The position numbers and the translations under genes are program-made. From positions 10,080 through 74,079 of IMG/VR virus record IMGVR_UViG_3300027777_000001: DNA of 64,000 nt; one strand, given 5' to 3'. This stretch comes from a virus. The notes beneath the pieces were generated by a model. The model was not told the DNA's origin. It ran no database searches and saw nothing but the letters and a program-made list of their open reading frames with translations. Below, piece after piece: positions 46,412 through 54,238 of this stretch. Positions within the stretch are counted from its first letter, which is position 1. The number at the start of each line of letters is the position of its first letter.

Positions 46412-47247
46412 CAATGTGTTCAGGATAGTTCGTTAAGCTATCCCCGCTTTATTCAAGCTGCTATGTATTCCTACATAGATCAGACTATATCTTCACCCAT
46501 CACTGGGGTTCTGCGCTTCCACCCACTTGGGTGTACTCCCTTACGGGATAGTCGTTGCACCTTTTACAACAGCTTTACACATCTGGATAAATAGTTCTTC
46601 ATCCAAATCGCCTTTTGCTCTATTAACAGCCCATGCTACCCATTGAACATTACCCTGTGTGTACCCTAATTTAGGTTGCAGTTTGTCAATTGACAATCCA
46701 GCAGGGTGTTCTTTTTCAACGAATAGTGATTGGTTGGTGTATTTACACTTCCCATTTTGCTGTTTCCAGAGGTCAAGCATATATTCCATAGTGATATTAA
46801 ATGGGCGTTCGTTTCGTTTGTTGTTGGTTTTTGCTGAAGATATCCTCTGGCAAATAGCAGAAACTAACTTACGTTCGTCCCCTTTATATGGTGCAAATCG
46901 GCCTGTGCCATCGTAGCCTTTATGTTTAGCTCGCCATTCTCTAGCTTCTTTTGCTAGACACACACGACATTCTGGTTTGAAATCAGCAATGACGTTGGCG
47001 TTGAATTGTGAGCTGTTTTTACTTTTGGCGGGGCCGTATGCATTTAAAGGTTTAATTTCATTACAGATCCGACAGGTTTTCATCGTATTCCTATAGGTAA
47101 AGTCATAGAAGTATTTTACGATTATTTCTACGGAATAGCTATCATAACTTGGCTCAGGATTGTCCTTATTTTTCAATAGTGGGATGTTCCCTGAGTTCAC
47201 AGAATTGCGTATTTCTAGTTGCCTAGAAAGTGACCCCTTTTATTCTA
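46412..47247 (-). mobile_element. Group I intron (IA-like), 836 nt
   Basis: 5' exon ends in U paired with G in P1; terminal G; P aactcagggaac (47186-97), Q aatcctgagc (47152-61), R gtgcaacgacta (46549-60), S aagatatagtc (46483-93). Confidence 0.9.
46541..47083 (-). CDS. Intron-encoded homing endonuclease (HNH/His-Me-like)
   Basis: Start MKTCRIC with SD agga; CxxC pairs; SIDK....GY..GNVQWV...VN.AK. Confidence 0.8.
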   Translation of the reverse strand: MKTCRICNEIKPLNAYGPAKSKNSSQFNANVIADFKPECRVCLAKEAREWRAKHKGYDGTGRFAPYKGDERKLVSAICQRISSAKTNNKRNERPFNITMEYMLDLWKQQNGKCKYTNQSLFVEKEHPAGLSIDKLQPKLGYTQGNVQWVAWAVNRAKGDLDEELFIQMCKAVVKGATTIP

Positions 47248-48806: not shown

Positions 48807-49181
48807 TTAGTAATGAACTACGTGAACGAACTTACCGAGCTTCTTCATGGTTTGAATCATGTGGGCTGTGCCTCTTGATTTTTGATCCCAAAAGGCTACG
48901 AGACCATCTGCTGCTTTACTCATGGCATCGTTACGGATGAACCCTGCACGCTTGCCATAGGTATCCCAATCTGCAGGGAACTTAATCAAAGGTACGTGGT
49001 ATTCCTCTGCGAACAGGACACCCAATCTGTCTGCACCTCTTGCCATGCCACTGACAATGCTCACTGAGACTTCGGCTAAAGCGTGATCCCCTAAGCCTAA
49101 GAGGACTAGTTGCATAGTCGTATAGTCCTCAAAGTCTCTACCGCCCGCTACAATCAATTTAAAGTCATTCATGGTACGCAC
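48807..49181 (-). CDS. YspA/SLOG-family (DUF2493-like) protein
   Basis: IVAGGRDF, SG.ARGAD, ADW..YGK.AG..RN..M, FWD..SRGT.HMI. Confidence 0.85.
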   Translation of the reverse strand: MRTMNDFKLIVAGGRDFEDYTTMQLVLLGLGDHALAEVSVSIVSGMARGADRLGVLFAEEYHVPLIKFPADWDTYGKRAGFIRNDAMSKAADGLVAFWDQKSRGTAHMIQTMKKLGKFVHVVHY

Positions 49182-50288: not shown

Positions 50289-50807
50289 TTAAGCCAGACT
50301 GAATTTAGGACGGGCTGCTTTCTCTCCGGGGCGATAATCCCAGGTGAGGTTTGTTAAGAACTCAACAATGTTCTTTGGATCAGCTTCGAGATAGTGCATC
50401 AGACCTGCGTGCTGAGTGTTATCAGCCTTCAGTTCGATAAAGCCAAGCTTCGCTGTGCCGCCGCCCTCTGCTGGAAGGTGAAAGTTCAGATAACCCGAAG
50501 TGTTGGCTTCTGTAGCAACTGCTGGTACTGGAGAAATCATCTTGATCTGTGATTTCTGGTTGCGGCGGGGCGATTGGTAATCAACCGTCACCTTAGCTGC
50601 GAAGATAGCCAAATTAGCTGGGTTCGCTTCAAGGTATTCGCGCAACATCTTCTGGTTCTCAACAGCGTCTTTGAGACCGATAAAGCCTAACTTGTACAAA
50701 CTATCTTCTTGTGCAGGAAGATAGGAATTCAGAAAACCACTTGCTTTCCAGTCTTGGTCAGAAGATGACGATGAACGTGGAGCTTTGTTGGCATAGGGAG
50801 AAGCCAT
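50289..50807 (-). CDS. Early protein with internal tandem duplication
   Basis: Start MASPY; two copies of SG(F/Y)LN..LPA......KLGFI.LK......(L)..YLEA.P.N.......T.DY. Confidence 0.7.
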   Translation of the reverse strand: MASPYANKAPRSSSSSDQDWKASGFLNSYLPAQEDSLYKLGFIGLKDAVENQKMLREYLEANPANLAIFAAKVTVDYQSPRRNQKSQIKMISPVPAVATEANTSGYLNFHLPAEGGGTAKLGFIELKADNTQHAGLMHYLEADPKNIVEFLTNLTWDYRPGEKAARPKFSLA

Positions 50808-52188: not shown

Positions 52189-52219
52189 GGTGCTACTCCA
52201 GAGAAGTAGACAAAATTGT

Positions 52220-52238
52220 CTATGACATACGCGTAGCG
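52220..52238 (-). promoter_or_regulatory. vRNAP-type hairpin promoter (variant stem)
   Basis: ctatgacataCGC-GTA-GCG, compensatory stem change. Confidence 0.65.
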
Positions 52239-52249
52239 AACAGCAAGGG

Positions 52250-52403
52250 AAAAAAAACACCCAACCATCCCGAAGGATGATTGAGTGTTAGATGTCTGCT
52301 ATCCCTAGCACATGAGTTGGATAAGCCTCATGCTCGCTGTCTGCCATGCTACCGGGCAGACTCAGTTGGAATAGACGCAAATACTTCTTTCTTTTGCTAT
52401 TCC
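52250..52403 (-). ncRNA. Candidate structured small RNA (about 150 nt) including terminator
   Basis: Bounded by hairpin promoter and UUCG terminator; three consecutive stem-loops; no ORF with SD. Confidence 0.5.
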
Positions 52404-52423
52404 GTTACAGAGGCGTAGCCTCT
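52402..52423 (-). promoter_or_regulatory. vRNAP-type hairpin promoter
   Basis: ccgttacAGAGGC-GTA-GCCTCT. Confidence 0.8.
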
Positions 52424-52444
52424 TGGATATGTACAGGTGCATAT

Positions 52445-52475
52445 AAAAAAAGGGGATAACCCATAAGGGTTATCC
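52445..52475 (-). terminator. Intrinsic terminator
   Basis: - strand ggataaccc-ttat-gggttatcc then cc and a U-tract. Confidence 0.75.
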
Positions 52476-52484
52476 ACTCTTGTG

Positions 52485-52679
52485 TTACCAATTCTTCATA
52501 CGTTCTTCAAGACGAGCTAAACGAAGCTCAAACTCTTTAGCGTAATGAGCCTCAGCTTCAGCACGACAAGCCTTTGTGTACTGACGATCTTTAATAAACT
52601 TAGGCATACTTACCTTAGGCAAGTTAAACTTAGGTAAAGTAATAGACTTAAACGACATCGTAGGGATAGTGATATTCAT
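52485..52679 (-). CDS. Small basic early protein (paralog A)
   Basis: Start MNITIP with SD ggag; repeated xLPK/xMPK. Confidence 0.65.
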   Translation of the reverse strand: MNITIPTMSFKSITLPKFNLPKVSMPKFIKDRQYTKACRAEAEAHYAKEFELRLARLEERMKNW

Positions 52680-52721
52680 GTGATGCTCCGAAAGGGGAAA
52701 GAGATGTCGGGACGACATCTT

Positions 52722-52740
52722 CTATAACTGAGGCGTAGCC
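52722..52740 (-). promoter_or_regulatory. vRNAP-type hairpin promoter
   Basis: ctataactgaGGC-GTA-GCC. Confidence 0.75.
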
Positions 52741-52751
52741 AATAGCTTAGG

Positions 52752-52791
52752 AAAAAATACACACACCATCCCCTAAGAGGGATGATGTGTT
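52752..52791 (-). terminator. Intrinsic terminator
   Basis: - strand acacatcatccc-tcttag-gggatggtgtgt-gtatttttt. Confidence 0.7.
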
Positions 52792-52894
52792 TACATCTAT
52801 GGTGTTGCTGGGTTGGTTTGAGAAACCGTATACATATCTGCCATATCTCATGCACAAAACAGATAAGTGAAGAGCCTCGTAATGCATTTGCTTT

Positions 52895-52916
52895 CCATTA
52901 CATAGGCGTAGCCTAT
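52895..52916 (-). promoter_or_regulatory. vRNAP-type hairpin promoter
   Basis: ccattacATAGGC-GTA-GCCTAT. Confidence 0.8.
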
Positions 52917-52934
52917 TAGATGTATACGGGTATT

Positions 52935-52976
52935 AAAAAAGAAACCAACACACACCCAGTTAGGATATGTGCTGGT
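52935..52976 (-). terminator. Intrinsic terminator
   Basis: - strand accagcacatatcc...gggtgtgtgttggt-ttctttttt. Confidence 0.65.
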
Positions 52977-53258: not shown

Positions 53259-53542
53259 TGTAGTTAACTGAACTCAACTCGCTCTGAGTTAAGGAGGCAG
53301 GAGTCGAGCTGTCCTCTCCTCCCCCAGTGGACTGGGGTAAATCCAAATAAGGAAAGGTAGGGGGGGTACTTTCCTTTTTTCGTCTTTGCTGCCTCAGCCC
53401 TACACCCGTACCCATTTTATAAATTTCCTCAAAACCCTAATTAATTTTCTCTAAAAAATTATTATAAAAATAATAGAGTATTAGTTTGGATTATGGCTTT
53501 ACCATATAATGTCTTTATATAATCCTACTGGATATAAACATT

Positions 53543-54238
53543 ATGTCGGTATTAACTGTTGAACAGTTTAAACAGGTACTTCCTGATAAAGTTAAGAAGT
53601 CTGTTAACCAAGAACTGATTGATCAGGTTAATAACACCTTGTCTGATCCAGAGATGTTCGAGGCGTATAGGGATAATCTATTGTCCTATACCCGTGTCAT
53701 GTCAGATGGCAGGTTTAAGATTACTAGTTATATTGAAGCCATTAAGTATGTGAGCCATAAGTTAATGGGAGCCACGAATATCGAGGCTTATATTAAAACC
53801 TTTACAGATAAATATAATAGGTTCTTGGCTCAGGGTGTTACACCTAAAGATATTGCTAGTTATGTCACTGCTTATAATAAATCCAAGTTAGTGAACCTAA
53901 TCTTTGAACAAACATTAATCCCTAGTTATGTTCTAAACCAAGATCTTTATCAGAAGGCTTTGAATGTTCAGGCCGATCTAATGATTACCTCTAAATCTGA
54001 CAAGGTTCGCTGCGATGCAGCAAATAGTCTGTTAACGCACCTGAAGATGCCCGAGGTTACGAAGGTGGAGTTAGAGATTGGGGTGCGTGAGGATAGCTCG
54101 ATTGCAGCGCTCAGAGAGACCACCTTGGCCTTGAGTGCTCAGCAAAGGCTCATGGTTGAGGCGGGGATGATGAACGCTCAGCAGGTGGCACACAGCAAGC
54201 TGATGGTGATCGATGTCGAAGCCAAGGAGATTCACTAA
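53543..54238 (+). CDS. Terminase small subunit-like (N4 gp69-like)
   Basis: A.KYVSHKLMG, YNKSKLVN.I.EQ, AA.SLLTHLK.PE; synteny. Confidence 0.8.
   Translation: MSVLTVEQFKQVLPDKVKKSVNQELIDQVNNTLSDPEMFEAYRDNLLSYTRVMSDGRFKITSYIEAIKYVSHKLMGATNIEAYIKTFTDKYNRFLAQGVTPKDIASYVTAYNKSKLVNLIFEQTLIPSYVLNQDLYQKALNVQADLMITSKSDKVRCDAANSLLTHLKMPEVTKVELEIGVREDSSIAALRETTLALSAQQRLMVEAGMMNAQQVAHSKLMVIDVEAKEIH

Follow-up and report, generated by a model that had tools for sequence, protein, structure and literature searches.

A candidate immediate-early non-coding RNA with a covarying hairpin in the early cassette array of an N4-like freshwater phage

The early region of an N4-like freshwater phage contains a unit of about 150 nt, unit B (predicted RNA at about 52403-52250, minus strand), which has its own hairpin promoter and terminator. 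The most likely reading, at about even odds, is that unit B gives rise to an abundant immediate-early non-coding RNA acting through one of its stem-loops, hairpin 2. A second gene-less cassette, unit A, carries a homologous hairpin, and the combination of two gene-less cassettes, the best promoter hairpins and one covarying hairpin makes a compact, directly testable candidate. The preliminary description of this DNA had proposed a dedicated non-coding RNA. The self-contained build of the unit, the absence of an SD-led ORF and the covariation in hairpin 2 speak for that proposal, while the specific functions it suggested found no support.

The phage and its early cassettes

The window, that is the whole stretch of 64,000 nt that was analysed, covers bases 10080-74079 of a 74,079-bp IMG/VR virus record (99-bp overlapping ends; 45% GC). 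The source genome is that of an N4-like phage (Schitoviridae), 74 kb long and complete; it is assigned to this family on account of its genes for a virion RNA polymerase (phrog_2206, E = 0) and an N4-type RNAPII subunit (phrog_2166, E = 8e-97). The RNAPII subunit is less than 50% identical to those of all GenBank phages, the nearest being Pectobacterium phiA41 and the LUZ7 group. The sequencing runs that contain the phage are freshwater metagenomes, and none of those listed is an RNA run. Judging by its GC content and its GGAG ribosome sites, freshwater Proteobacteria are candidate hosts. A divergent non-coding region at 53260-53560 of the window separates the first early promoter, on the minus strand, from the first gene on the plus strand, which has a weak small-terminase likeness (phrog_2109). 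The physical genome ends are probably located in this region, and the 99-bp end overlap of the record looks like an assembly overlap rather than a true terminal repeat.

The early region is an array of promoter-cargo-terminator cassettes. Seven such cassettes, one of them unit B, lie on the minus strand, and each has an early hairpin promoter of the LUZ7/N4 type (GGCTACGCC...GT....G), a small inverted repeat around a TAC loop. The pattern [CG]GCTACGC[CG]NNNG[AT]NNNNG occurs seven times, always on the minus strand from 53257 to 49214 (49.2-53.3 kb), and nowhere else in the 74-kb genome. A perfect 6-bp stem is found in two of the seven copies, precisely those of units A and B; the preliminary description had rightly counted the unit B promoter among these two. 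Such stems hint at strong transcription of both units.

Known early units of N4 (P1-P3) and LUZ7 resemble these cassettes in several respects: they have a hairpin promoter with a 3-nt loop, lie at the early genome end of phages with a vRNAP gene, and are short, terminator-bounded and highly modular (PMC4496689, PMC9163698). The LUZ7 early promoters also have the CTACG hairpin core of the promoters described here, and the nine early starts mapped in LUZ7 have a G at 13-14 nt past the centre of the hairpin (PMC9163698); a G stands 14 nt from the loop centre in all seven copies of our phage. In contrast, the known units encode proteins (e.g. LUZ7 gp01, Drc), whereas two of the present ones have no SD-led ORF, and the start sites, mapped in LUZ7, are placed in unit B by analogy. 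LUZ7-type phages carry tandem hairpin promoters with the same CTACG core, 32 nt apart, before the Drc gene (5988 and 6020 in L006; 3667 and 3699 in LUZ7, L227). Given this core both there and in the freshwater phage, the promoter hairpin is conserved across very distant Schitoviridae (RNAPII <50% identical).

The transcribed parts of the cassettes also have features in common. An RNA stem-loop starting at +12 to +14 is found in five of the seven early cassettes (53257, 52740, 52420, 52238 and 50868), and a 5'-terminal stem-loop at or near the predicted +1 is present in four of the five coding ones and in unit B. Most early units end in long, strong intrinsic terminators; the region has 13 terminator-like sites where 3.7 would be expected. 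The terminator of unit B is separated from the next promoter by 18 nt. Units A and B sit within ~1.2 kb of the presumed left (entering) genome end. During N4 infection, entry begins with the first 500 bp and is then driven on by early transcription (PMC4496689).

Several early proteins are encoded in the array. The 172-aa protein at 50289-50807 (minus strand) is a tandem duplication of a Drc-like domain; each of its halves can be aligned with LUZ7 gp14 (Drc, annotated 'toxin'; E = 1e-9 and 3e-4), and phrog_6271 is a further match. The last early cassette encodes a 102-aa protein (48807-49115, minus strand), directly upstream of the RNAPII subunit, that matches phrog_289 ('GTP-binding domain', E = 5e-24).

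The layout around units A and B looks duplicated, with the cassette of a 72-aa protein (53200-52982, minus strand) followed by unit A and that of a 64-aa protein followed by unit B. The 64-aa gene (52485..52679, minus strand; promoter 52740-52722, terminator 52475-52454) lies directly upstream of unit B. The two proteins are paralogues, 46% identical over their N-terminal 28 aa (E = 6e-5), and neither matches a known family. Both contain repeated hydrophobic-x-hydrophobic-P-K motifs (ITLPK, NLPK, SMPK), and a 15-nt period is detected by TRF at 52595-52634 within the 64-aa gene. A homologue of the 64-aa protein (P0002, 88% identical) is encoded on a 73,814-nt contig.

Structure of unit B and its relation to unit A

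The preliminary description had reported three stem-loops and a UUCG terminator on the minus strand, and folding finds all of them. The promoter P_B (52402..52423) has its hairpin at 52423-52409, with a stem AGAGGC/GCCTCT and a TAC loop, followed by GTAACGG. The predicted start is G52403/G52402, 13-14 nt past the loop centre. Hairpin 1 (52403-52368) is formed by GGAAUAG/CUAUUCC, with an inner GCAAA/UUUGC stem and the purine-rich loop AAAGAAAGAAG. Hairpin 2 (52361-52339) pairs GUCUGCC with GGCAGAC around a 9-nt loop ending in AU; together with the flank ACUGA it makes up the module (52339..52366) that is the core common to unit A and to a variant from sequencing run X5. Hairpin 3 (about 52333-52310) consists of (G)CAUGAG/CUCAUG(U) around the loop GCUUAUCCAA; it has no clear counterpart in unit A, and the X5 contig stops before it. 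The terminator T_B (52250..52289) has a hairpin at 52289-52256, with a 15-bp stem, a UUCG loop and a T-run.

Base-pair probabilities are 0.78 for hairpin 1, 0.8 for hairpin 2 and 0.99 for hairpin 3. An alternative fold, in which CUAUUCC pairs with a downstream GGGAUAG and closes a three-way junction, has a nearly equal energy (-53.3 vs -53.7 kcal/mol) and takes 21% of the ensemble, against 78% for the fold described above. Whole unit B folds with z = -3.9 to -4.1; its body without the terminator reaches z = -1.7 (13 of 200 shuffles fold as well), hairpins 2 and 3 alone z = -1.25, and the body of unit A z = +0.47. The folding z-score of unit B comes mostly from the 15-bp terminator. Two Watson-Crick stems of at least 7 bp occur in 0.6% of dinucleotide shuffles by a perfect-stem count. 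The stems of unit B are real and somewhat beyond chance, and its body is not exceptionally stable.

The three stems do not carry equal weight as a signature of the unit. Hairpin 1 is a generic 5'-terminal, cap-like stem-loop rather than unit-B-specific cargo, because similar stems stand on other early cassettes and it is absent from the X5 variant. It is hairpin 2 that is specific.

Unit A occupies 52752..52916 on the minus strand, 500 nt upstream of unit B, with a predicted RNA of ~145 nt (about 52896-52752). Its promoter (52916-52895) has the 6-bp stem ATAGGC-TAC-GCCTAT, its hairpin-2 homologue (52864-52836) pairs AUCUGUU with GGCAGAU, its ORF MADMYTVSQTNPATP has 15 codons from AUG 52844 and no SD, and its terminator lies at 52790-52761. 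In a MAFFT alignment, units A and B match convincingly only at the promoter, at AUGGCAGA and at the terminator, and the overall alignment is poor. Both carry the hairpin at nearly equal distances from the start, 52 nt in unit A and 56 nt in unit B, with a 3' arm that begins in AUGGCAGA. A search for ATGGCANAN with a complementary arm 4-24 nt upstream finds this motif type at 52361 and 52864 only in the whole genome. In 4.1 Mb of unrelated viral DNA, the same search gives 11 matches (~2.7e-6 per nt), and relatives L002-L007 and LUZ7 have no hairpin-2-like module.

A third copy of hairpin 2 comes from run X5. The promoter in the X5 contig is identical from 52430 to 52400, then follow GGAA and a different 5' end; the RNA has no hairpin 1 and runs straight into ACUUA-GUAUGC-GAGGUAU-GGCAUAC-AGCGAA. 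The consensus of the three copies is ACUKA, a 6-7-bp stem, a loop ending in AU, and GGCAKAY. Pair position 1 is G-C in unit B and A-U in unit A; pair position 3 is C-G in unit B and A-U in X5, the arms being otherwise unchanged. Both changes are compensatory, so that covariation is seen in two of the seven pairs; the sample is very small, with three copies, of which one is a 34-nt fragment. At two inner positions, C-G in unit B corresponds to U·G in unit A, and pairing fails only at the innermost position of a single copy. All three copies retain the unpaired flank ACU(G/U)A. By estimate, two random substitutions in 14 arm positions would hit partners and restore pairing in about 3% of cases. 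These pairs were read by hand, as the three-way MAFFT alignment misplaced the 5' arm of unit A.

Both units are variable in their occurrence. The closest IMG/VR relative found, L002 (RNAPII 93% identical), has neither and is presumably viable; one different small gene replaces ~950 nt there, equal to three cassettes including units A and B, and the two units are therefore dispensable for that phage or host-specific. The replacement gene (3986-4167 in L002, against 53198-52251 of the window) is membrane-like, a cassette-level exchange at the entering genome end. Unit B is unchanged in run X2. In X5 contig 18 (window 52221-52248), 384 extra bases lie between a T_B-like terminator and the start of a 52-aa gene, and they are probably one more cassette in this related freshwater population. 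In another X5 contig, the 64-aa gene differs in its C-terminal part.

Wider searches returned no further relative of the locus. The surrounding 2 kb had no blastn match among GenBank phages (INPHARED) in near or distant mode, and a related-locus search with the two flanking small proteins gave nothing. Scans of viral contigs found nothing for the promoter plus start pattern; for the 3' arm of hairpin 2 they gave 98 chance matches, none with a promoter or wider similarity, and for two promoters 150-180 nt apart at least 120 matches, all unrelated. A scan of metagenome contigs with the promoter 19-mer hit one contig, high in GC and unrelated, and direct-repeat scans of L003, L004, L005 and L007 showed no comparable cassette motif.

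Coding potential, known RNAs and rival explanations

Unit B contains a short ORF on the minus strand, MADSEHEAYPTHVLGIADI plus stop (52347-52288), of 19 codons (MADSEH...); a longer version from UUG 52380 has 30 codons. The AUG of the 19-codon ORF lies across the junction between the hairpin-2 loop and the 3' arm, and the preliminary description was correct in placing it in hairpin 2 and in finding no SD. Pairing with the anti-SD amounts to -3.0 kcal/mol at a spacing of 2 for AUG 52347 and -1.3 kcal/mol for UUG 52380, and start codons across the gene-less units reach only -1.3 to -3.3 kcal/mol at spacings of 1-2. The neighbouring early genes have GGAG or GAGG at spacings of 4-9 (-5.6 to -6.0 kcal/mol). 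The Drc-like gene, a real early gene, also has a weak SD (-3.3), and the missing SD in unit B is therefore not decisive. The ORFs of units A and B, on either strand, are absent from a collection of 15 billion proteins, in which the flanking 64-aa protein is present, and the unit B ORF has no Pfam or PHROG match. In tblastx, both unit bodies gave a best E of 0.13 against the early regions of relatives and of the phage itself; there is thus no sign of a decayed early gene as the source of the units.

Unit B has an intrinsic terminator with a U-run and lacks an SD-led ORF. Like the candidate small RNAs sRNA1-3 of LUZ7, its predicted transcript is shorter than 250 nt, has no coding potential of the usual kind and belongs to an N4-like phage; unlike it, the LUZ7 RNAs lie between orf69 and orf70 of the late region and are made late (PMC9163698). 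No hairpin promoter has been reported for them, and blastn against phages shows no similarity between their sequences and unit B. Rfam gave no family for the whole window at gathering thresholds (thus no Intron_gpI at 46412-47247, in the RNAPII large subunit) and no match for 52200-52950 at E up to 10 with the CRISPR repeat (CRISPR-DR) families included, so that the Rfam search named in the preliminary description yields no family for the unit. ARAGORN found no tRNA or tmRNA. An Hfq class-II-like RNA was considered on account of the (ARN)4 loop of hairpin 1 and the U tail, and was dropped, since the X5 variant lacks hairpin 1 and no tract of this kind occurs in unit A. No feature supports a 6S-like RNA, a tRNA-like RNA or a CsrA sponge (GGA loops). 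The suggested role as a lysogeny regulator is implausible, since one account describes the Schitoviridae as obligately lytic (PMC11445570).

That unit B is instead a micro-protein gene, an mRNA for an acidic MAD peptide of 19 aa (15 aa in unit A) with hairpin 2 as its translational operator, is unlikely, though it deserves some weight. AUGGCA is invariant at the junction of loop and 3' arm in all three copies, G-rich purines precede the AUG in the loop (GGUAGC, GAGAU, GAGGU), the ORFs of both units stop before their terminators, small acidic early proteins of 33-52 aa occur in the phage and in L002, and a weak SD is tolerated by the Drc-like gene. However, these SD-like purines are 1-2 nt from the AUG, far too close, and the peptides of units A and B have only MAD in common, which is encoded by the conserved stem arm. 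Five codons of the X5 ORF are known, with one radical and one silent change. The radical one, a G-to-U change, replaces Asp by Tyr at the third codon, and its pairing partner lies upstream of the ORF; being compensated outside the ORF, it fits selection on structure, not on peptide. By chance alone, about half of all random AUGs would open an ORF of at least 15 codons, and no gene caller predicts the micro-ORF. The replicase operator of phage MS2 is a translational operator hairpin containing the start codon. Hairpin 2 resembles operators of this type in its small size, in its AUG at the loop/3'-arm junction and in its conservation by covariation; in contrast to them, unit B has no substantial downstream gene or known binding protein, and its 'ORF' of 15-19 codons is not conserved. 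Hairpin 2 might also act as DNA, with the RNA incidental; it could, for instance, be bound by the Drc-like regulator as ssDNA, or serve as a replication signal or middle promoter. A DNA hairpin would account for the compensatory changes just as well, the middle promoters of LUZ7 have been reported to be hairpins (PMC9163698), and the phage encodes the tandem Drc-like protein; yet there are only two copies of hairpin 2, both inside early cassettes and not before middle genes, and a role as DNA is highly improbable.

The cassettes could also be product-less, either remnants left after cargo loss or promoter 'stations' that help a membrane-anchored vRNAP to pull the genome end in. This is doubtful. 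Cassettes are indeed gained and lost between close relatives, as the ~950 nt replaced in L002 and the 384 extra nt in the X5 relative illustrate; the units lie near the presumed left end, N4 early transcription drives entry (PMC4496689), and the folding energy of the body is unremarkable. Against a product-less cassette, units A and B have a common specific hairpin with compensatory changes and a single-stranded flank, and their promoter hairpins are the two best; ending transcription after 150 nt would work against a pulling role, and translated similarity to an early gene as decayed ancestor is missing. A further possibility, a sub-case of the non-coding RNA reading, is that the unit specifically imitates an RNA of a host defence system. 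It would then be an RNA anti-CRISPR or an antitoxin mimic, as the preliminary description suggested, the antitoxin being of type III. The CUGCC/GGCAG stem of hairpin 2 vaguely recalls type I-F CRISPR repeats, but the loop has 9 nt, not 5, and X5 changes the stem to UAUGC/GCAUA. As for the anti-CRISPR, neither Rfam nor its CRISPR-repeat families match and the genome scan found no repeat array; as for the antitoxin mimic, TRF found no tandem arrays in units A and B and hence no ToxI-type repeats of about 36-45 nt. A search of 185,579 prokaryote species, one genome each, for hairpin 2 and its flanks gave a single match, inside a Rhodoferax ORF, which is a chance number. A small hairpin made immediate-early from a strong promoter would suit such mimics, and Racr solitary repeat units (PMC10651486) and pseudo-ToxI (PMC3475682) are likewise small early phage ncRNAs that act as hairpin protein decoys; unit B does not show the resemblance to host CRISPR repeats or tandem antitoxin repeats that defines them, and a specific mimic has very little probability.

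Proposed action and significance

If unit B does act as a non-coding RNA, the injected virion RNA polymerase would start at P_B and stop ~150 nt later at T_B, and the released small RNA would not be translated in the ordinary manner. Its working part would be the hairpin-2 module, also carried by the sister unit A. Hairpin 1 at the 5' end and the terminator hairpin at the 3' end might stabilise the RNA, the 5' stem-loop being clear in unit B and weak in unit A. The RNAs of both units would be among the very first made, in large amounts, from the first ~1.2 kb to enter the cell. They may work in trans by offering a host or phage RNA-binding protein a structured decoy or binding site, rather than as a long antisense; antisense matches within the phage window are no better than chance (11 nt exact or 14 nt with a mismatch at the longest). 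A trans-acting RNA that serves as a protein-binding decoy or in the manner of an operator is favoured because the unit has no long complementarity and no ordinary translation signal, and has a conserved flank next to a covarying stem. That units A and B form a decoy RNA family which neutralises a host RNA-binding defence or regulatory protein before any phage protein is made is a long shot.

Small RNAs of phages are already known, and LUZ7 has late intergenic candidates (PMC9163698). No description was found in the literature of an early ncRNA made by the injected virion polymerase in an N4-like phage or any of the Schitoviridae. Should the units prove to be remnants or micro-ORFs, they would still document the free exchange of promoter-cargo-terminator cassettes at the entering genome end. 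Such early RNAs, if real, would already be there before translation begins, and no phage effector could come earlier; if the decoy family exists, it would amount to an RNA-only first line of host takeover in the Schitoviridae, exerted via the ACUKA-hairpin-AUGGCA module.
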